Assembly: GCA_019057795.1 (NCBI GenBank)
Contig: JAHLWS010000069.1
Location: 20,659 to 84,658 of the forward strand
Source of the DNA: Promethearchaeota archaeon
Lineage (GTDB): Archaea > Asgardarchaeota > Lokiarchaeia > Sigyniarchaeales > SOKP01
DNA length: 64,000 nucleotides
Direction of reading: 5' to 3'
The notes below the pieces were generated by a model. It saw nothing but the letters and a program-made list of their open reading frames with translations. It was not told where the DNA came from and did no database searches. The position numbers and the translations under genes are program-made. Every line of letters starts with the position of its first letter. Position 1 is the stretch's first letter. Positions 29,368 to 40,002 of the stretch are shown in pieces.

Positions 29368-30678
29368 CTAATACATATTTTTCAATCTTTCCATAAAAGG
29401 TTCTACACTTTTTTTGACTCCGTTTACATTTTCGCCTATTTTTTTGAAATTAATAACTATTGATGGTATATTTAATTCCGTTTTCATTTTATCCTTTAAT
29501 GTATCGTATGTTTTTGATATTGAAGGGCACCCAAATACCTGGTTGAAGATTAAACCATCTATGTTCATTCTTTTTGCTGCTGCTAAGTAGGAATTCGTCA
29601 TATTTTCTCTGTTGCATCCAATTCCTTTTGTTGATGCGTTCAATAGAAAACGAGAGTAATCTTCAATGGGGTCGGAATTTTTTGATAAAGGGATTTCTTC
29701 CAATAAACCTAGTAAGTCCCAATCAGCATAAATTATCCTTCCACCCAATTTATAAATAATTTCGTGTACTTCTGGTTCCCACCCTTGGTACATTGGGGCA
29801 AATAACACCCTTGGCATGTGAGAAACATCCATTCCTATACCTTTTTTGATCCTCTCTCTCATTTCTTTAACTAATTGACTCATATTATTTAAGTATCTTT
29901 GAGCGTTAGAATTATAATCTTGAAATGTTATTGTTAGAAGCGCTAGAATTTCCGCAAAGGATGCAGGATTACAAGGATAGAAATTTGAAGTACTGATCTC
30001 ATAAAGGATTGTTTTATAAAATCGCTTTACCTGGTTTCCTATTCGGAATTGTTTTTGTAAGCTACTATCTGTGACAAAATTTCCTGTTATACCCTCTAAA
30101 TCACTGATCCCCCTTTTTACACTGTTTATTATTTGTTCTAGTGCCTTATTTTCATTTTCTAGATTTTTAGGAGGAACCTCAATCGTTATTTGATTAGGGA
30201 CTGTTGTTTTTAACGATTCAGAAAACTTATTCCATTCACCACAACGCATAGCAAAGTTAAGATTAGCGTCTAAATTTTTGCCCTTTGATAAATGCATTCC
30301 ATAAAGAGCGTTAATTCCATAACATAATTCAGAGGGAACGCCATTATTAACACCTAATTCGTACATTTCATTATATTTACTATGAATCGAGGTAATAACA
30401 TCTTCAAGAATTTTATCGACTATTTTTAATATATCAAATTGACGAGCGAAATCTAGAAATTTTGATGTTAAACTCCAACCTAATACACTAGTGGCGGAAT
30501 TTAACATTGCTAAGTACTTATTAACTTCAAACGATTCCATTCGAATTGGAAAAACTGGAATCCCTCCAACGGCAAAAGCTAAATCTGGGAAACCTAAGGC
30601 AACTGAAATTAATTTTTTCTTTTCTTTAAACTTTTTCTTTTTTAGATACTCTCTACCTGTTAAAAAATTATAAGCCAT
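29368..30678 (-). CDS. 2-hydroxyacyl-CoA dehydratase / benzoyl-CoA reductase BcrC/BadD/HgdB-family protein, paralog 1 (solitary)
   Basis: Collinear and highly similar to 36617..37972, for example AYNFLTGREYLKKKKFKEKKKL..PVFPIRM, FYPCNPASFAEILALL, QDYNSN, MRERIKKGIGMDVS, YADWD, INFKKIGEN. Confidence 0.8.
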   Translation of the reverse strand: MAYNFLTGREYLKKKKFKEKKKLISVALGFPDLAFAVGGIPVFPIRMESFEVNKYLAMLNSATSVLGWSLTSKFLDFARQFDILKIVDKILEDVITSIHSKYNEMYELGVNNGVPSELCYGINALYGMHLSKGKNLDANLNFAMRCGEWNKFSESLKTTVPNQITIEVPPKNLENENKALEQIINSVKRGISDLEGITGNFVTDSSLQKQFRIGNQVKRFYKTILYEISTSNFYPCNPASFAEILALLTITFQDYNSNAQRYLNNMSQLVKEMRERIKKGIGMDVSHMPRVLFAPMYQGWEPEVHEIIYKLGGRIIYADWDLLGLLEEIPLSKNSDPIEDYSRFLLNASTKGIGCNRENMTNSYLAAAKRMNIDGLIFNQVFGCPSISKTYDTLKDKMKTELNIPSIVINFKKIGENVNGVKKSVEPFMERLKNMY

Positions 30679-31152: not shown

Positions 31153-32139
31153 ATGACTAAGGAAAAAATAAAAATTTGCGTACTTGAGAAAAAACGAGGA
31201 AATTTTTCAATACAAGAGAAATTTGCTAAAAACGAAAATATTATCGATACAACTAATCAAGAAGTAGAACATCATTTAAGTGCTTTAAATGAAGCGGGTT
31301 ATGATGTAAAAATATTAAAATGGAATGACAATATAATTTATGATTTAAAAAGTCTTGACATTGATATCGTATTTAATATATCCAGCATTGTTGAAACAGC
31401 TATTTTAGAAGAATTAGAGATACCTTATGTAGGGTCTGATGTTTTTGGATGCGTTATAGCAACCGATAAGGTTCTTACTAAAGACTTGTGGTTTAAAAAA
31501 GGATTACCAACATCACCTTATATTTTAGCAAGATCAAAAGAGGATTGTGAAATTTTTAAGAAAAACAAGCCATTTGATTATCCTTTATTTATAAAACCCT
31601 CTCAAGGGAGAGGAAGTTCTGGAATCGATGAATCCTCACTTATCTGTTCATATAACGAATTAATTAAAGGAGTTGAAAAAAGATTAAACACAATAAATCA
31701 ACCTGTTCTTATTGAAAAATTTTTAAAAGGTAGGGAAATAACATGTGGAATTATTGGTAATGGAAATCAGATTAAAGCCTTACCTTTATTAGAAATAATA
31801 CACAAGGAAAAGGAAAAATTCTTGACATTTAATAAAAAAGAGTTAGATGACGATCAATTCCAATGCCCTGCAAAATTAACTCCGAAACAGTCTAAAGAAT
31901 TACAGAAATTAGCTATTTCAGCATTTCAAGCGATAAATCTTAGAGATTATGGTCGTGTAGACATGATCTTATCAGAAGAAGGTCCTTTTTTATTAGAAAT
32001 AAATTGTTTTGCAGGATTAATGTGTACACCAAAAGATAAACCTCATAGTTACATGGGCTTTATGGCAATTGCAGAAAACAAAAAAAGTAGTGAATTCTTA
32101 GATGAAATTATAAAAGAAGCATTAAAAAGAATTGGATAA
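31153..32139 (+). CDS. D-alanine--D-alanine ligase-family ATP-grasp enzyme
   Basis: Ddl-type pattern: ILEELEIPYVGSDV, FIKPSQGRGSSGI, GREITCGIIGNG, YGRVDMILSEEGPFLLEINCFAGL. Confidence 0.75.
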   Translation: MTKEKIKICVLEKKRGNFSIQEKFAKNENIIDTTNQEVEHHLSALNEAGYDVKILKWNDNIIYDLKSLDIDIVFNISSIVETAILEELEIPYVGSDVFGCVIATDKVLTKDLWFKKGLPTSPYILARSKEDCEIFKKNKPFDYPLFIKPSQGRGSSGIDESSLICSYNELIKGVEKRLNTINQPVLIEKFLKGREITCGIIGNGNQIKALPLLEIIHKEKEKFLTFNKKELDDDQFQCPAKLTPKQSKELQKLAISAFQAINLRDYGRVDMILSEEGPFLLEINCFAGLMCTPKDKPHSYMGFMAIAENKKSSEFLDEIIKEALKRIG

Positions 32140-32181: not shown

Positions 32182-33267
32182 ATGCCAATACTTGAAATAA
32201 ATTTGAGAAAAATTAGACATAACGCAAAATTATTAAAGAATCTTTTAACTCAGCGAAATGTATCTATTATTGGAATTACAAAACTTGTCTTAGGAAACCC
32301 TACTATTGCAATGACGTTGGTTCAAGGAGGAATAGAGTATTTAGGAGATTCACGAATTAACAATATTATTAAAATGAAAAAAAATAATATTAGAGCTCAA
32401 TTTGTTTTAATTCGTATTCCAAGCATTACTGAAATTCCTCTTGTTGTTAAATACGCAAATTATAGCCTAAATTCAGAATTAAAGACCATAAGAATGCTTT
32501 CAAATGAAGCCGTTAAACAAAAAAAGATACATAATATAATTCTAATGGTAGATATGGGAGATTTAAGAGAAGGAATAAATATATTCAATATTGAATTTTT
32601 TGTCGAAGAGATTTTAAAACTAAAAAATATAAATTTAAGTGGAATTGGTACAAATTTCAAATGTTTTGGTGGTATCATCCCGACAGATGAAAATATGAAT
32701 GAATTTTCAAAATTAGTCTTTAGGATCAAGGATAAATTTGAATTGGAATTAGAATTTGTTTCAGGAGGAAATTCTGCAAATTTTAACTGGTTTAAATCGT
32801 GTAAAAACATTGGTGAAATAAATAATTTTAGAATTGGGGAAGCCATGTTTCTAGGAAAAGAAACGATAAATTATGAACCAATTCCAAATCTATATACAGA
32901 CGCTTTTAAGTTAATAACAGAGATTGTTGAGTTAAAACAAAGATCTGTAATCCCCAAAGGGATTATTGTATCAAATGCATTTGGGGAACGTGTCCAAACT
33001 TACCATAAAAAAATTAACAACGGTAAAAAAAGCGATATAATTAGAACACAAGCACTTTTAAATATAGGTAGACAAGATATTGCAGTAAAAGGATTAAATC
33101 CGAAAGAAAGTATTAATATTCTTGGAGCTTCAAGCGACTACTTAGTTGTAGATATAAGAGATAATCAATTTCAGATTGGACAAAAATTGCATTTTGATTT
33201 AAATTATGAAGCTCTTTTAAGAGCAATGACTAGTCCCTATATCCATAAGAAATTTATCGATATTTAA
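32182..33267 (+). CDS. Alanine/ornithine-racemase-fold PLP-dependent enzyme (YhfX/Orr-like)
   Basis: Type-III PLP barrel N-terminus with candidate PLP lysine in IIGITKLVLGNP, MVDMGDLREG, and a C-terminal beta domain. Confidence 0.6.
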   Translation: MPILEINLRKIRHNAKLLKNLLTQRNVSIIGITKLVLGNPTIAMTLVQGGIEYLGDSRINNIIKMKKNNIRAQFVLIRIPSITEIPLVVKYANYSLNSELKTIRMLSNEAVKQKKIHNIILMVDMGDLREGINIFNIEFFVEEILKLKNINLSGIGTNFKCFGGIIPTDENMNEFSKLVFRIKDKFELELEFVSGGNSANFNWFKSCKNIGEINNFRIGEAMFLGKETINYEPIPNLYTDAFKLITEIVELKQRSVIPKGIIVSNAFGERVQTYHKKINNGKKSDIIRTQALLNIGRQDIAVKGLNPKESINILGASSDYLVVDIRDNQFQIGQKLHFDLNYEALLRAMTSPYIHKKFIDI

Positions 33268-33677: not shown

Positions 33678-35432
33678 GTGTTTTATTCAATAATGATGAC
33701 TAACTCTTATTTAGAGAAAAAAAAAAATAGAAGAATTTTAACAGCATGTATAGGACAATGCGTGCATGTAGCAGGTACATATAATTTCATTCAAATTTCA
33801 AAACAGTTAGGTTATAATAATATATTTTTAGGACCTGCTACCCCTATTTCAATTGTTATCGATCAAATTAAAAAGTATGACCCTAACATTGTAGGGCTAA
33901 GTTATCGTTTAACGGCAGACACTGTTAGACCTTTACTAAATGAATTTTTTAAAAATTTTATAAAATTAGAGAAAAAACCAAAAAAATTATTTTTTGCTGG
34001 AACACCTGAAGTAGTTGAGATTGCAAGAAAATATGAAGGGTTCGATGAATATTTTGTTGGAGGGGAATCAAAATTTGAATTAATTTCTATCTTGAGAAAT
34101 GAGAAAGTAAAATCAGAAAGTAAAACAGAAATCCCTATGGACATTATTTCTCGAATACAATGGAAGAAACCTTATCCTGTAATTAGAGCGCACTTTGGAT
34201 TACCTAATTTCAATGAAACAATAGAAGGAATAAAAAAAATTGCTAAAGCTAAAGTCTTAGATGTTATTTCAATTGCGCCCGATCAAAATACGCAAGCAAA
34301 TTATTTCCACCCTGAAAATCAAGATAAAGAATTATCTGGAGCGGGCGGGGTTCCTTTGCGCACTCAGCAAGATTTCGAAAAGCTCCATCAGGCAAGATTA
34401 ACCGGAAACTATCCGATGTTAAGGGTATATGCTGGAACACGCGATTTCATTAAATTAGGAAAATTGTATCGAGATACAATTCAAAATGCTTGGGCAGCAA
34501 TTCCTATTTTTTGGTTTAATCAAATGGATAGTAGGGGGCCTTTAACTTTAAAAGAATCGATTAAACAGCATCTAAACGCAATAAAGTGGCACGGAAAGCA
34601 CAATATTCCCGTTGAAGTAAACGATCCACATCATTGGAGCCTTCGAGACGCTCCTGATGCTATAGCTGTTGCTGATATGTATTTATGTGGAATAATAGCC
34701 AAAAAATTAGGCGTCAAAAATTTTATAGCACAATATATGTTTAATACACCTCCATCAAGTTCACTTGATATGGACTTAGCAAAAATTCTCGCTAAAGATG
34801 AGTTACTTCAAACGCTAGCCAATGAGAACTTTACGATAATTAAGCAAGTTCGAACGGGAATAACAAGTTTCCCATTAGATTTGGATAAAGCAAAAGGACA
34901 GCTTGCTACAGCGACATTTGTTCAATTAGCTATTAGACCAGACATTGTTCATGTAGTTAGTTCTTCTGAAGCTAGTCATGCAGCTCGTCCAGAAAATGTA
35001 ATAGAAAGTTGTAAAATAGTGGATCAAGTCATAGATAAAGTTTATTCCTGTAAAATTAATATTATAGATAAAAAAATTGAGGAAAGGAAAGAAGAATTAA
35101 TAAGACAAGCCAAATGGATAGTTAATTTAATACCTCATCTAACAAAAAATGAAGAAGAAACGATAAGTCCATACACCAATTATGAAGTTTTAAGTCGACT
35201 CGTAAAATATGGTATATTTGATGCCCCACATTTAAAAAACAATAAATTTGCGTTGGGTAAAATTAAAACAAAAGTAATTAACGGTGCTTGTTATTCGTGG
35301 AATGAATCTCAGCAAAAAATTTACGATGAAATTGAAAGAATAAAAGACATTATCTTTAATAGCCCATTTAAAAATTTTTCTGATTCATTACAACAAAAAG
35401 AAAAATCCATCACAAAGGTGATGGATGAATGA
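33678..35432 (+). CDS. B12-binding-domain-like N-terminus fused to a large TIM-barrel-like domain (possible glutamate-mutase sigma+epsilon-like fusion); function unknown
   Basis: N-terminus ILTACIGQCVHVAGTYNF...IVGLSYRL...LFFAGTP follows the Rossmann B12-binding layout, with CVHVAG where DxHxxG is expected. Downstream motif order (VIRAHFG..., PMLRVYAGTRD, HNIPVEVNDP, LGVKNFIAQYMF) resembles GlmE/MutE as I remember it. The track start is GTG, and the ATG at 33693 is an alternative. Confidence 0.35.
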   Translation: MFYSIMMTNSYLEKKKNRRILTACIGQCVHVAGTYNFIQISKQLGYNNIFLGPATPISIVIDQIKKYDPNIVGLSYRLTADTVRPLLNEFFKNFIKLEKKPKKLFFAGTPEVVEIARKYEGFDEYFVGGESKFELISILRNEKVKSESKTEIPMDIISRIQWKKPYPVIRAHFGLPNFNETIEGIKKIAKAKVLDVISIAPDQNTQANYFHPENQDKELSGAGGVPLRTQQDFEKLHQARLTGNYPMLRVYAGTRDFIKLGKLYRDTIQNAWAAIPIFWFNQMDSRGPLTLKESIKQHLNAIKWHGKHNIPVEVNDPHHWSLRDAPDAIAVADMYLCGIIAKKLGVKNFIAQYMFNTPPSSSLDMDLAKILAKDELLQTLANENFTIIKQVRTGITSFPLDLDKAKGQLATATFVQLAIRPDIVHVVSSSEASHAARPENVIESCKIVDQVIDKVYSCKINIIDKKIEERKEELIRQAKWIVNLIPHLTKNEEETISPYTNYEVLSRLVKYGIFDAPHLKNNKFALGKIKTKVINGACYSWNESQQKIYDEIERIKDIIFNSPFKNFSDSLQQKEKSITKVMDE

Positions 35433-36535
35433 GGTTCTGCGTTATTGGAGCAGGAAATGGTGGCCGAGCGTTTGCGGCATATTTATCATCAGAAGGATAT
35501 CCTGTAAATCTATATAATCGCTCATATACCAGAATTTATGACATCAAAAAGAAAGGAGGAATAAAAGCAAAAGGGAAGTTAAAAGGCTTTTTCCCAATTG
35601 ATCTGATTACACAAAATCTAAATTTGGCAGTTAAGAATGTAGATGTTATTTTAATAGTAACTCCTGCTTCAGCACATAAAAGTATTGCAAAGAACATTGC
35701 ACATTTTTTAACAAACGATCAGATAATATTGTTGAATCCAGGTAGAATTTTTGGAGCTGTAGAGTTTAGAAGTATAATAGAAAAGGAAAGAGGGAATCTC
35801 CCTATTTTTATTGCTGAAACCCAAACATTACTTTTTACATCAAGACAATTGAAAAAAAATGAAGTTCAAATTCTTACAATTAAGGATTCTGTTAGTTTTT
35901 CTGCTTTTCCAGAGAAGCATACGTTTTTCATTAGTGATACATTGAGAGATGTTTTTCCCCAAATGAATCCTATTGATAATTATCTGCAAGTTACATTAAA
36001 TAACATGGGGATGTTATTGCATCCAACTCTCTCATTATTGAATGCTAGTGCTATGGATTATGGAAGAAAGTTCAATTTTTATGCACAAGGGGCATCTACA
36101 CATACTTGTGAAATTCTTGAGGCTCTTCAAATGGAATTCAGAAAGATTTTTGAAAAGTTAAATTTAAAGCAAATAAATTTTTGTGAATGGGTGGAGAAAT
36201 CTTATGGATTTAAAGCAAACAATATCTATAATGCTATTCAAAAAATAGAGGCATATAAAAATATTGTTGCTCCAAAAGAATTAATAACTAGATATTTCAC
36301 TGAGGATGTTCCAACTGGACTTGTACCTATGGCGTCATTAGGAGAATTCTTAGAAATTTCTACACCAATAATTGATTCTATAATAAATTTATCTTCGATT
36401 TTATGTGGAATTGATTTTAGAAAAGAGGGAAGAAGCATTATGAACTTAAATTTAGCTAGCCATATAACTAAACAAATGAAAGGAGAAGATATGTTGGGAA
36501 TACTAGAAAGTCAAAAAACACAAATCGATGCTTAA
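35429..36535 (+). CDS. NAD(P)-dependent octopine/nopaline (opine) dehydrogenase-family oxidoreductase
   Basis: N-terminal Rossmann MRFCVIGAGNGGRAFAAYL and C-terminal YFTEDVPTGLVPM (the Octopine_DH EDVPxGLV signature). Its ATG overlaps the upstream stop (ATGA). Confidence 0.65.
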   Translation: MRFCVIGAGNGGRAFAAYLSSEGYPVNLYNRSYTRIYDIKKKGGIKAKGKLKGFFPIDLITQNLNLAVKNVDVILIVTPASAHKSIAKNIAHFLTNDQIILLNPGRIFGAVEFRSIIEKERGNLPIFIAETQTLLFTSRQLKKNEVQILTIKDSVSFSAFPEKHTFFISDTLRDVFPQMNPIDNYLQVTLNNMGMLLHPTLSLLNASAMDYGRKFNFYAQGASTHTCEILEALQMEFRKIFEKLNLKQINFCEWVEKSYGFKANNIYNAIQKIEAYKNIVAPKELITRYFTEDVPTGLVPMASLGEFLEISTPIIDSIINLSSILCGIDFRKEGRSIMNLNLASHITKQMKGEDMLGILESQKTQIDA

Positions 36536-36616: not shown

Positions 36617-37972
36617 TTACTTAAACATTTCCATGAATGCACCGAGCCTTGTCTTCATTTGTTCGATGTTCTCTCCAATTTTATTAAAAGTAATTGCAGT
36701 TGTTGGTATCTCAAGCTCGCGTCTTACTTTCTCTCTCAGCATTGTATAACAATTTGAAATAGAATGACATCCAAACAATTGAAAAAATATAAGACCATCG
36801 GCATTTAATTTTTTTGCCACTCTCAAATATGAGTCAGTTAACGTGTCGTTATCACACCCAATCCCTGATACTGTTGCATTTAAAAGAAATCGAGCGTATT
36901 CTTCAACAGGATTTAAATGATTAGCCACGGGAATTTCCTCTGAGAATTTTATTACTTCCCAGTCAGCATAAATCGCTCTCCCGCCTAGTTCATATATAAT
37001 ATCGTGGGTTTTTGGTTCCCATCCTCCGAATATTGGCGTTACAAAAATACGCGGCATTTTAGACACATCCATTCCAATTCCCTTTCTTATTCTTTCCCGC
37101 ATTTCGTCTACGAGTGAAATTAAATTATCCCTATATCGTATCGAATTAGAATTATAGTCTTGAAATGTAAGGCTTAATAACGCCAGAATTTCACTAAATG
37201 TTGCTGGATTACACGGATAAAAATCAGAAGCACTAATATCGTAGATTATTGTTTTATAAGATTTTTTTACTTGATTACTAATTTTAAAATGCTCTCTCAA
37301 TTGATTATCCGTTATTGTGTTGCCAGTTAAATTCTCCAATTCTCTTATGGCGTTCGATACATTATCAGTTATAATTTCCAAAGCATTTCCAATATTTCTG
37401 GGAGGAATATCAACCCATATTTGCTTTGGGTCTTGATTGATTATTTTTAAGGATTCCATATATTTATTATACGCGCTACATCGAATTGTAACGTTGAGAC
37501 ATGCGTCTAAATTACGACCTTTGGAAATATGCGCACCAACTAAACTTTTCAACCCGTAACAGAAGTCACTTGAAATTCCATTCTCAATTCCAAGATCATA
37601 CATTTCGTTGTATTTTTTGTTAATCGTGTCAATTACATCCTCAATAATTCCGTCAACAATTTTACTGATTTCAGATATTCCAAGGTTCTTAACAAAACTT
37701 AAGAAGCTAGAAACATTTTTCCAGCCAAAAATACTAGACGCGGAGCCTAAGTACGCGAGGTATTTACTAATTTCAAAAGTGTGCATCCTTATCGGAAACA
37801 CTGGTACAGCACCTGCCGCGAAAGCTAGATCTGAAAATGCTAAGGATACTCCAACTAGCTTTTTTTTCTCTCGGAACTTTTTCCTTTTTAGATACTCTCT
37901 GCCTGTTAAAAGATTATAAGCCATTTTTAATACAGAACTAAAAGTTATTATTTCCTCAGCAATTAAACTCAT
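36617..37972 (-). CDS. 2-hydroxyacyl-CoA dehydratase HgdB/BcrC-family subunit, paralog 2 (beta-like)
   Basis: Family similarity to 29368..30678. It has an ATGA overlap with the upstream alpha-like gene and sits in an operon with an HgdC-like activator. Confidence 0.8.
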   Translation of the reverse strand: MSLIAEEIITFSSVLKMAYNLLTGREYLKRKKFREKKKLVGVSLAFSDLAFAAGAVPVFPIRMHTFEISKYLAYLGSASSIFGWKNVSSFLSFVKNLGISEISKIVDGIIEDVIDTINKKYNEMYDLGIENGISSDFCYGLKSLVGAHISKGRNLDACLNVTIRCSAYNKYMESLKIINQDPKQIWVDIPPRNIGNALEIITDNVSNAIRELENLTGNTITDNQLREHFKISNQVKKSYKTIIYDISASDFYPCNPATFSEILALLSLTFQDYNSNSIRYRDNLISLVDEMRERIRKGIGMDVSKMPRIFVTPIFGGWEPKTHDIIYELGGRAIYADWEVIKFSEEIPVANHLNPVEEYARFLLNATVSGIGCDNDTLTDSYLRVAKKLNADGLIFFQLFGCHSISNCYTMLREKVRRELEIPTTAITFNKIGENIEQMKTRLGAFMEMFK

Positions 37973-39108
37973 TTCATCATCTCCAAATACGCTTCTATTC
38001 TTGTTGAGAGCTGCCCTCGATTAGCTCGAGAATAGTCTCGCTCTAAATTCAATACTTGTATTCCTTTTTCTTGTAACTCATTTTTCAAGAAAGAAGACAT
38101 TAACGATATGTGGTCGCAAAATTTAATAATATGATTGAAAACGCCTAATTTTTTACCAGTTTTTTTTGTATAGTTCTTAGAATAATTATCAATCAAAGAA
38201 ACTTTTTGTTGCAAGAAGTTAGGTACTGAATGGTCTCCACACGTATTATTTTTAAATCTCAGCACCAATAAATCTAAAGGATTTTTGTTTGAATTTATCG
38301 AGTCATCATCTATAACTTGTGAATAATAGTGATTTCCAATCCATGTATCGAAATAAACAATATTTCCCCCTCCTTCTTCGATTAAATCAATTAGGTTATC
38401 ATTAATGAAGATAGAACATCCTGTAAATAAAATATCTTTAGATAAACCAAGGTTTTGAGGTGGATTGTTTTTTACTTCTTCAATGTACTTTTCTAAATCA
38501 GGTAGGAATGTTGGACCATATAATATTGCTTTTTGAATTATATTTAATTTTTCTGAGCCCAAAATCTCTAAATCATTAACTTGCGATATTTTTTTTTTAA
38601 AATCATTATACTTCTTAATACTCTCAAATAATTTTTCGTCAGAAATTTTTTTACCTATAATATCTTCAAGCTTCTCCTTTAAATTTTGTAGCTCTATCTT
38701 GAAATATTTTAAACTACTTTCATTAGTCATATATGGGACATAAAAATTTAAACGAGAGATATTGAAATATTTAGTTATTATTTCTGAAGCACAAATATCT
38801 GATACGCAGTGGTTTGAAACAATAAAATAATCCACCAAATCTAAAAATCTGTAGTTATTTGGTTTAGTAGAAAATAATCCAATACATGATTGAGCAAATG
38901 CACATGTAGATGGAGGTAAAAAATCGTGACTAGCTTCCATTAACTCGTCATCCCCTCCAAACATCATCCTTAAAGGAAAGAAACCCGCTGCATCTATCAA
39001 CTCTTCGGGGATATTGTCGTGAGCTAAAAAAGCAACGATTTTAACACCTTCTTGCTTTTTTTCTTTAAGAAATAACGAAAACTCTGGGAGAAGAATGGGA
39101 TCGGTCAT
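37969..39108 (-). CDS. 2-hydroxyacyl-CoA dehydratase HgdA/BcrB-family subunit (alpha-like)
   Basis: Same fold family: N-terminal IVAFLAHDNIPEELIDAAGFFPLRM and Cys-containing PPSTCAFAQSC. It is positioned between the activator and the beta-like gene. Confidence 0.7.
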   Translation of the reverse strand: MTDPILLPEFSLFLKEKKQEGVKIVAFLAHDNIPEELIDAAGFFPLRMMFGGDDELMEASHDFLPPSTCAFAQSCIGLFSTKPNNYRFLDLVDYFIVSNHCVSDICASEIITKYFNISRLNFYVPYMTNESSLKYFKIELQNLKEKLEDIIGKKISDEKLFESIKKYNDFKKKISQVNDLEILGSEKLNIIQKAILYGPTFLPDLEKYIEEVKNNPPQNLGLSKDILFTGCSIFINDNLIDLIEEGGGNIVYFDTWIGNHYYSQVIDDDSINSNKNPLDLLVLRFKNNTCGDHSVPNFLQQKVSLIDNYSKNYTKKTGKKLGVFNHIIKFCDHISLMSSFLKNELQEKGIQVLNLERDYSRANRGQLSTRIEAYLEMMK

Positions 39109-39222
39109 AATATTAGCTTGAGTAGTATGAAATTATCTATCTGAAAAGACTTATTTCCTTAAAAAAGTTTCCCGATTTAAAATATAGATAAAAATATTAA
39201 AATTAGCTGAAATAAAATTAAT

Positions 39223-40002
39223 CTAATTAGAATTGTTTTCTTGAGCTATTAAAGCGGCACCAATAGCTCCCGTGAGTTGAGGAAATTCGGGTGTTTCGAT
39301 GCCATATCCAAGTTCATCTTCTAAAAATTTTTTTACAGCAGGGTTTTTGGCGACTCCACCACAGAAAATAAGTTTAGGTCCTACTCCAATACGTTTTGCC
39401 ATTCCGGCAACTCTTCTCGCAATTGATTTATGTATGCCGCTTGCGATCTCTTCTTTAGAAGCCCCTCTCGCGAATAAACTTATTACTTCGCTTTCTGCGA
39501 AAACTGTACATGTTGAACTTATTGAAGCCGATTTGTTAGATCGTAAAGCTAAATCTCCAAATTGATCAATAGGAACTTCCAACGCGTGAGCCATGACTTC
39601 CAAAAACCGGCCCGTTCCTGCTGCGCATTTGTCATTCATTTGAAAGTCAATAACATTTCCAGTTTTTGCAGACATTACAATTGCTTTACTATCTTGACCC
39701 CCAATATCTATTACGGAATTAGCATCTGGAAAGAAATATTGCACCCCCCTAGCGTGAGCTGTAATTTCAGTCACTCGATCGTCTGCAAAGTCTACTGTAT
39801 TTCTTCCGTAACCGGTGCTCATAATGTGTACATCTTCCTTCTTCAAACTGTGTTTATTTAATATTTCATTAAATAAATTATGACCAATTCTTTTGAAATC
39901 ATATGTGGATCTTTCTGTTCGGTGATCAATTAACTTCCTATCGTTAATAAGCACTATCTTTGTTGCCAAAGAACCAATATCTATACCAATAAAATTCTTC
40001 AA
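39223..40002 (-). CDS. BcrAD/BadFG/HgdC-type ATPase (dehydratase activator, archerase)
   Basis: ASKHA-fold N-terminus IGIDIGSLATKIVL, DIGGQDSK, cluster-bridging Cys motifs NDKCAAGTGRFLE and STCTVFAESEVIS, and C-terminal GGVAKN. Confidence 0.9.
   Translation of the reverse strand: MKNFIGIDIGSLATKIVLINDRKLIDHRTERSTYDFKRIGHNLFNEILNKHSLKKEDVHIMSTGYGRNTVDFADDRVTEITAHARGVQYFFPDANSVIDIGGQDSKAIVMSAKTGNVIDFQMNDKCAAGTGRFLEVMAHALEVPIDQFGDLALRSNKSASISSTCTVFAESEVISLFARGASKEEIASGIHKSIARRVAGMAKRIGVGPKLIFCGGVAKNPAVKKFLEDELGYGIETPEFPQLTGAIGAALIAQENNSN

Follow-up and report, generated by a model that had tools for sequence, protein, structure and literature searches.

Gene pair at the locus

We analysed a 64,000-nucleotide stretch (hereafter the window) of contig JAHLWS010000069.1 from a Promethearchaeota archaeon, whose 4.95-Mb genome is referred to below as the host genome. 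The window carries a gene that encodes, in a single chain, an N-terminal Rossmann domain of the cobalamin (vitamin B12)-binding type followed by a barrel resembling that of GlmE, the large subunit of glutamate mutase. Its stop codon overlaps the start codon of a downstream opine dehydrogenase (ODH) gene by 4 nt (ATGA at 35429-35432), which agrees with the coupling of the two genes reported in an initial annotation made from the sequence alone. Two in-frame ATG codons, at 33693 and 33696, match the N-termini of homologues better than the GTG at 33678. The gene product most likely belongs to an uncharacterised family of adenosylcobalamin (AdoCbl)-dependent isomerases related to glutamate mutase.

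Table 1. Positions of the mutase and dehydrogenase genes, of selected mutase elements and of two upstream genes in the window (aa, amino acids; PLP, pyridoxal phosphate)
Feature	Position	Strand	Remarks
Fused B12-binding/GlmE-like mutase gene	33678..35432	+	584 aa from GTG 33678; likely start ATG 33693 or 33696
N-terminal cobalamin-type Rossmann domain	33720..34112	+	About aa 15-145; H30, G33, S75, R77, L78 and G108 nearly invariant
CVHVAG loop, a variant of DxHxxG	33759..33776	+	Residues 28-33; Cys28 in place of Asp
GlmE-like TIM barrel and C-terminal domain	34125..35357	+	About aa 150-560
Asp284 codon	34527..34529	+	D in 111/111 family members; aligned with GlmE Glu171
Glu431 codon	34968..34970	+	E in 107/111 family members; aligned with GlmE Glu330
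Opine dehydrogenase	35429..36535	+	368 aa; R106, G194 and N30-R31-S32 form an acidic-amino-acid, NADPH-type signature
Ddl-like ATP-grasp ligase	31153..32139	+	Adjoins the mutase-ODH cassette only in the host genome and one near-identical genome
Ornithine-racemase-like PLP racemase	32182..33267	+	Conserved two-gene unit with the Ddl-like gene

Fold and profile evidence

Residues 325-490 matched the Pfam family Met_asp_mut_E with 30.4 bits, just over its gathering score of 26.6. A family profile built from 49 sequences matched solved B12-binding domains, including 4jgi (E-value 2.7e-8) and the Aeropyrum mutase small subunit 2yxb (E-value 1.2e-6), as well as those of MetH and GlmS. In these matches, His30 takes the place of the His of the DxHxxG motif, and S75-x-x-L78 that of the SxL motif. 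The N-terminal domain keeps His30, Gly33, Ser75, Leu78 and Gly108 (each in 96-107 of 111 family members), but Asp is changed to Cys, the GG motif reads AG and the Pfam B12-binding score stays below its gathering score.

The AlphaFold2 model, built on the same 49-sequence alignment, had a mean predicted local distance difference test score (pLDDT) of 90.8 and a predicted template modelling score (pTM) of 0.88. A Foldseek search with this model placed GlmE (1cb7_B) first, with an E-value of 1.7e-17, ahead of the aminomutases for ornithine and lysine and of acyl-CoA mutases. Superposition with VIA-align gave a Z score of 29.6 for GlmE over 375 residues (root mean square deviation 3.1), 28.1 for KamD (8t0v_A), 25.5 for OraE (3kp1_A), about 20 for methylmalonyl-CoA mutase (MCM) and about 15 for pterin-binding barrels. 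Compared with the corrinoid proteins 1y80 and 4jgi, the N-terminal domain reached a Z score of 15.1. For profile-profile comparison with hhalign, we assembled alignments of true GlmE and true KamD from Bacillota genomes. The family aligned to GlmE with a probability of 94.5-97.4%, pairing residues 118-583 with GlmE 17-468, and to KamD with a probability of 7%. The link to GlmE comes from the fold, from these profile-profile comparisons and, weakly, from Pfam.

Both the cobalamin-binding Rossmann module and the GlmE-like barrel behind it had been proposed in the initial annotation; motif, profile and fold evidence agrees with the first, and Foldseek, VIA-align and hhalign bear out the second. 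The fold prediction showed neither a flavodoxin-like domain of a non-B12 type nor a barrel unrelated to the mutases.

Conserved residues and the predicted substrate pocket

A Tissierellia GlmE aligns without gaps to GlmE of Clostridium cochlearium, so that residue numbers could be carried over directly, and the local and global hhalign alignments agreed on the residue map. From the C. cochlearium structures, we take R66, R100 and R149 of GlmE to form an arginine claw and Y177 and Y181 to bind glutamate; E171 presumably binds the substrate amino group. In the window protein, H172 stands in place of R66, with the invariant R170 two residues before it, Q206 in place of R100, Y251-A252 in place of R149-H150 and V427 in place of K326, and Y177 and Y181 lie within a 9-residue deletion. 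The two acids E171 and E330 correspond to D284 and E431. E431 thereby occupies the position of the conserved Glu of GlmE (E330), MCM (E370) and ornithine aminomutase (OAM; E338), which in glutamate mutase contacts the adenosyl ribose (PMC4413051).

Residues R170, H172, S198, Q206, Y251, R286, E313, R323, D327, Q352, K369, R392, H425 and E431 are each kept in 107-111 of the 111 members, bacterial and archaeal. Together with G223-G224-x-P226, D284, N315 and N356, they lie at the C-terminal ends of the eight predicted strands of the barrel, the face that meets the corrin in B12 mutases. Our reading is that the cofactor side of the site and the amine-binding acid have been retained and the carboxylate-binding set rebuilt, which would imply a substrate other than glutamate that is the same in bacteria and archaea. 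The initial annotation had suggested that the Arg, Glu and Tyr contacts of GlmE were lost. This holds for R66, R100, R149, Y177 and Y181, but the acids at positions 171 and 330 are kept; the changed pocket residues support its further suggestion of a different substrate.

The cysteine variant of the DxHxxG motif

The departure from DxHxxG at residues 28-33, with His and Gly kept and Asp changed to Cys, is present as the initial annotation described it. Across the family, position 28 is Cys in 42 and Asp in 65 of the 111 members. Maximum-likelihood analysis placed the Cys type in a clade that holds all Asgard sequences, with a single reversal to Asp (in the Asgard sequence L037), and a Flavobacterium sequence (L066) has Cys within the Asp clade. 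In two metagenomic proteins of the Cys clade (P0142 and P0147; 1,226 and 1,266 aa), the mutase is joined to a complete ATPase domain of the MutL/GlmL type (PF13941, 256-277 bits). MutL is the family of the accessory (reactivase) protein of glutamate mutase, and it adjoins GlmE in the true glutamate mutase operon of a Tissierellia genome (G154). Because Cys and Asp swap among close relatives and the Cys type occurs fused to a MutL-type domain, Cys28 is probably a working substitute for the Asp that hydrogen-bonds to the His ligand and not a sign of cofactor loss; the Cys type would then still use B12, with His30 as the presumed lower axial ligand of cobalt.

A look for adenosylcobalamin genes, proposed with the initial annotation, turned up a CobA-type adenosyltransferase (160 bits) in the host genome, along with three MCM large subunits and 19 other B12-binding domains. 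Canonical GlmE was searched for in the same genome and not found. Separately, the ESM Atlas contains a Chloroflexota cluster of 863-aa proteins carrying MutL.

The opine dehydrogenase partner

The ODH matched PF02317 with 133 bits and aligned to ArODH/CENDH (1bg6) over 342 residues with an E-value of 2e-76, its catalytic His (H202) included. Judged by its sequence, the partner is a bona fide opine dehydrogenase. In reciprocal double mutants, Arg at ArODH position 111 together with Gly at position 198 switched the preference from hydrophobic to acidic amino acids (L-Asp and L-Glu), with pyruvate and NADPH as the other substrates (Telek et al. 2024). The window ODH has R106 at the position of ArODH A111, G194 at that of N198 and N-R-S at those of D34-I35-D36, and all 62 of the 62 aligned mutase-linked dehydrogenases carry Arg or Lys at the first of these positions and Gly at the second. 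Because of the Arg106/Gly194 signature, the window enzyme should prefer acidic amino acids and should couple an L-amino acid of the Asp/Glu type reductively with pyruvate, using NADPH.

Distribution and gene neighbourhood

The mutase has more than 3,600 homologues, the best 120 of which are Asgard proteins of 556-608 aa that are 67-96% identical to it; the names on the closest ones are Promethearchaeota and Lokiarchaeota. Of 151 Asgard genomes sampled, 56 have the gene, with identities of 40-50% in other Asgard families. In 19 of 20 Asgard loci the mutase has an ODH gene as its same-strand neighbour; the 20th locus ends at a contig edge. The mutase precedes the ODH in the Asgard family to which the window belongs and follows it in other families. 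One genome of the same genus (L044, G104:C23:1-20000) carries two mutase-ODH pairs on a single contig, roughly 10 kb from each other. The NCBI pipeline (PGAP) labels most Asgard members "methionine synthase", which is probably a propagated misannotation; we rejected that identity on the Pfam, PDB-profile and VIA-align results.

A bacterial sister clade has the canonical DxHxxG motif and comprises sequences from Bacteroidota, Bacillota (cultured Bacillaceae among the members), Chloroflexota, Thermotogota, Myxococcota, Planctomycetota, Hydrogenedentota, Synergistota and others. Cultured carriers include Halolactibacillus alkaliphilus, Amphibacillus marinus and Natronobacillus azotifigens. The family occurs in at least 10 bacterial phyla. 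An ODH gene lay within 6 kb of the mutase in 42 of 50 bacterial loci. A Gemmataceae member (L100:6119-8842, +) is 907 aa long because it is extended N-terminally by about 290 aa, a stretch without any Pfam match, and no ODH was detected in its locus.

In Bacteroidota and some Clostridia (L047-L059, L063, L077, L080 and L091), the pair lies inside polysaccharide clusters of the capsule or O-antigen type. These hold a sugar transferase, an ATP-grasp enzyme of the L-amino-acid-ligase type, a "sugar-transfer associated" ATP-grasp enzyme and an aldo/keto reductase, as well as PGA_cap, a DegT aminotransferase, glycosyltransferases and UDP-GlcNAc 2-epimerase, a setting that suggests imino-acid decoration of a surface sugar. 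Outside such clusters the mutase-ODH pair stands alone. ATP-grasp genes occurred in 23 bacterial loci, one family member (P0124) carries a fused ATP-grasp domain of the glutathione-synthetase type, and major facilitator superfamily (MFS) transporters recur at Asgard as well as bacterial loci.

Directly upstream of the mutase in a Tissierellia locus (L062, 6761-6888, +), we found a c-di-AMP riboswitch (RF00379, 111 bits), the only one among 26 bacterial loci scanned; neither the other 25 nor the Asgard window had an RF00379-like riboswitch. A second, truncated RF00379 copy lies after the ODH at the end of that contig (L062:10458-10512, +). A Tissierellia genome (L101, G154:C72) carries both the canonical MutL-GlmE-methylaspartate ammonia-lyase operon and a mutase of the orphan family, and this coexistence indicates that the orphan mutase is not a substitute for glutamate mutase.

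Proposed function and alternative explanations

We think it probable that the window gene encodes a single-chain, base-off/His-on AdoCbl-dependent radical isomerase of the GlmE lineage, which acts on a substrate other than glutamate and is paired with an ODH for acidic amino acids in a short biosynthetic route. In such an enzyme, the corrin would sit in the N-terminal Rossmann domain, with its lower ligand supplied by His30, and Cys28 would take over the hydrogen bond from Asp to His30. The barrel would hold the adenosyl group through Glu431 and an amine-bearing substrate through Asp284, without the arginine claw of GlmE. The mutase and the downstream ODH would work as an obligate pair: either the mutase would rearrange an opine, namely an N-(1-carboxyethyl) acidic amino acid, or it would make a branched acidic amino acid that the ODH would then turn into an opine. 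The product might be exported (MFS genes are among the neighbours) or be joined to another molecule by an ATP-grasp enzyme. In Bacteroidota the joining target would be a cell-surface sugar, and in the window the Ddl-like and racemase genes may fill the ligase role.

Our preferred guess, which we infer and hold only tentatively as a possible but rather doubtful scheme, is an "opine mutase" pathway. The ODH would make N-(1-carboxyethyl)-L-Asp or N-(1-carboxyethyl)-L-Glu, and the B12 enzyme, with a Cys-tuned His-on site in Asgard archaea, would then carry out a radical shift of the carbon skeleton (or of nitrogen) to give a branched imino-acid. The product could serve as a stress solute, as an export product or, in Bacteroidota, as an amide-linked decoration of a surface glycan. 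About a dozen AdoCbl isomerase reactions are known, and the tricarboxylic secondary amine of this scheme would, if the scheme is true, be a new substrate class for AdoCbl enzymes. More generally, this is a widespread and well-conserved orphan family whose fixed partner has predictable chemistry, so that its function can be tested with two proteins and few candidate substrates. Solving it would likely yield a new B12 reaction and a new metabolite, either a solute of the opine type or a decoration on a glycan. The widespread "methionine synthase" label would be corrected as well, and it would become clear whether Cys can replace Asp in the ligand triad of DxHxxG.

Several points weigh against an AdoCbl isomerase with a non-glutamate substrate. 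The Pfam B12-binding match on residues 19-81 is weak (19.9 bits against a gathering score of 32.1), and searches of PDB sequences, both with the single protein and with the family profile, found B12 domains alone and never GlmE. The aminomutase Z scores lie close to that of GlmE. The alignment behind the residue map has about 17% identity and could shift by one position (the KamD alignment puts Q206 elsewhere). MutL, PduO-type adenosyltransferase and CobS were searched for in the host genome and not found. For the members of the family we infer cobalamin binding, the adenosyl form of the cofactor and the reaction; which of the two reactions comes first and what the substrate is are guesses. 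Finally, a literature search for characterisation or assay of the mutase-ODH pair found nothing after 2009.

The closeness of the Z scores would suit an aminomutase that uses both PLP and AdoCbl, of the lysine 5,6- or ornithine 4,5- type, relocating an amino group within a diamino or an acidic amino acid before the ODH acts on the shifted amine. With 28.1 for KamD and 25.5 for OraE, the fold by itself does not separate such an enzyme from GlmE; in the hhalign output the GAGGVP loop of the family also resembles the GFGGT loop of KamD, and a gene like that of ornithine racemase lies upstream. We nevertheless regard this reading as unlikely, since the hhalign probability is 7% for KamD against 94-97% for GlmE, the window protein has no Pfam aminomutase match and the racemase neighbour is not conserved. 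Residues 31-60 of the Rossmann domain, which follow His30, contain no conserved Lys, where the PLP lysine of KamE and OraE, a short way past the His ligand in the Rossmann domain, is presumably located. A plain fused glutamate mutase (EC 5.4.99.1), converting glutamate to 3-methylaspartate, would account for GlmE as the best fold and profile match, and 3-methylaspartate is one of the acidic amino acids for which the partner ODH is predicted. This reading is extremely unlikely in our view, and we rejected a true glutamate mutase on the TIGR01503 score (21.2 bits against an equivalog cut-off of 390) and on the pocket residues, with R66, R100, R149, Y177 and Y181 all replaced or deleted. Neither methylaspartate ammonia-lyase nor MutL lies nearby, the neighbours being the ODH, the Ddl-like gene and the racemase, and one bacterium has both a true GlmE operon and a member of the window-type family.

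The Cys in the ligand motif might instead mean that the Asgard clade has lost or changed its use of cobalamin, leaving an enzyme that works without B12, or a pseudoenzyme in which only the fold survives. The canonical Asp is indeed replaced by Cys in 42 of the 111 members, the Pfam B12-binding score is sub-threshold and the host genome search gave no MutL, PduO-type adenosyltransferase or CobS. We consider this quite unlikely: the B12-motif residues His, Gly, Ser and Leu and every barrel-face residue are equally conserved in the Cys and Asp clades, Cys and Asp interchange within close lineages, and MutL fusions occur in the Cys clade. The identities among the closest Asgard proteins (67-96%) and to other Asgard families (40-50%) speak for strong purifying selection, and the genome has CobA and other AdoCbl enzymes. 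Very unlikely, too, is a corrinoid protein of methyl transfer, or a cobalamin sensor or carrier, in place of a radical isomerase. Many homologues are labelled "methionine synthase", and the best sequence matches of the N-terminal domain include corrinoid proteins of methyltransferases and B12 domains of MetH. Against this, Pfam and NCBIfam gave no match to the cap (B12-binding_2), to a methyltransferase or to a pterin-binding domain, and only the B12 domain aligns to MetH. The large domain has Z scores of 20-30 to the barrels of AdoCbl mutases compared with about 15 to pterin-binding barrels, the Glu for the adenosyl ribose is conserved and relatives are fused to a reactivase of the MutL type.

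Genes flanking the pair

The Ddl-like and racemase genes are separated from the mutase by an AT-rich gap of 410 nt. Compared with same-genus relatives, they look as though they had been inserted, with a dehydratase-like gene on one side and the mutase on the other, and in two other Asgard genomes (L133 and L134) the two-gene unit lies on a different contig from the ODH-mutase pair. Every sampled genome with an ortholog of the unit also has the mutase, a co-occurrence that is only suggestive because these genomes are related. We rejected the two genes as a conserved part of the cassette. The unit is carried by an archaeon that would not be expected to make peptidoglycan. Three genes of the HGD-D/double-cubane-cluster type and a BcrAD-type activase, a system resembling 2-hydroxyacyl-CoA dehydratase, also flank the cassette (36617-40002, -; 29368-30678, -), as they do in same-genus relatives.

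Comparison with known systems

The initial annotation did not recognise the arrangement of an N-terminal B12 domain fused to a GlmE-like barrel and coupled to an ODH, but such an arrangement had been predicted. Zhang, Rodionov, Gelfand and Gladyshev (2009, BMC Genomics 10:78, PMC2667541) proposed a novel B12 family of 11 bacterial members whose N-terminal B12-binding domain is a distant one and whose genes are "always adjacent" to a dehydrogenase of PF02317, with Ddl and asparagine synthase (AsnB-like) genes near. The window matches these features in its N-terminal B12 domain, its adjacent PF02317 gene and its Ddl-like gene at 31153-32139, and the 2009 members came from Clostridia, Chloroflexi and Thermotogae, the same phyla as in the bacterial clade described here (PMC2667541). 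The window mutase family is clearly the one that they predicted, matched by description. Their article gives no archaeal members, no assignment of the large domain to GlmE and no Cys variant (PMC2667541). We add the Asgard Cys clade, the GlmE-lineage assignment with its residue map, the fusions with MutL and with ATP-grasp domains, and the partner's universal acidic-substrate signature.

Glutamate mutase of C. cochlearium (GlmS/GlmE with GlmL/MutL; 1cb7, 6h9e; EC 5.4.99.1) shares with the window protein the barrel and C-terminal domain, a predicted His-on B12 Rossmann module and the acids at the E171 and E330 positions, and the MutL-type fusions of some relatives recall GlmL/MutL. Unlike glutamate mutase, the window protein is a single chain with an N-terminal B12 domain and Cys in DxHxxG. 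In place of the GlmE claw, it has H, Q and Y at R66, R100 and R149, a deleted Y177/Y181 loop and the family's own invariant arginines R170, R286, R323 and R392, and its partner is an opine dehydrogenase where glutamate mutase systems have methylaspartate ammonia-lyase.

KamDE (lysine 5,6-aminomutase) and OraSE (ornithine 4,5-aminomutase) have a similar barrel (Z 25-28) and use AdoCbl with a Rossmann B12 domain, as predicted here. They differ in their weak profile similarity (7%) and their domain order, and the window family lacks a conserved PLP lysine after the His ligand. Fused isobutyryl-CoA mutase (IcmF, 4xc6) is a precedent for placing the B12 domain ahead of the mutase barrel within a single chain, but its barrel is of the MCM acyl-CoA type, it has an inserted G-protein chaperone and its similarity to the window protein is much lower (Z about 17).

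On the side of the partner, ArODH/CENDH of Arthrobacter (1bg6) matches the window ODH along its whole length and shares its catalytic His. Telek et al. (2024) described metagenomic mODHs with a preference for L-Asp or L-Glu and pyruvate, and these have the same Arg/Gly pair and the same N-R-S residues at the NADPH-type positions as the window ODH; that paper is silent on any B12 gene next to the mODHs.

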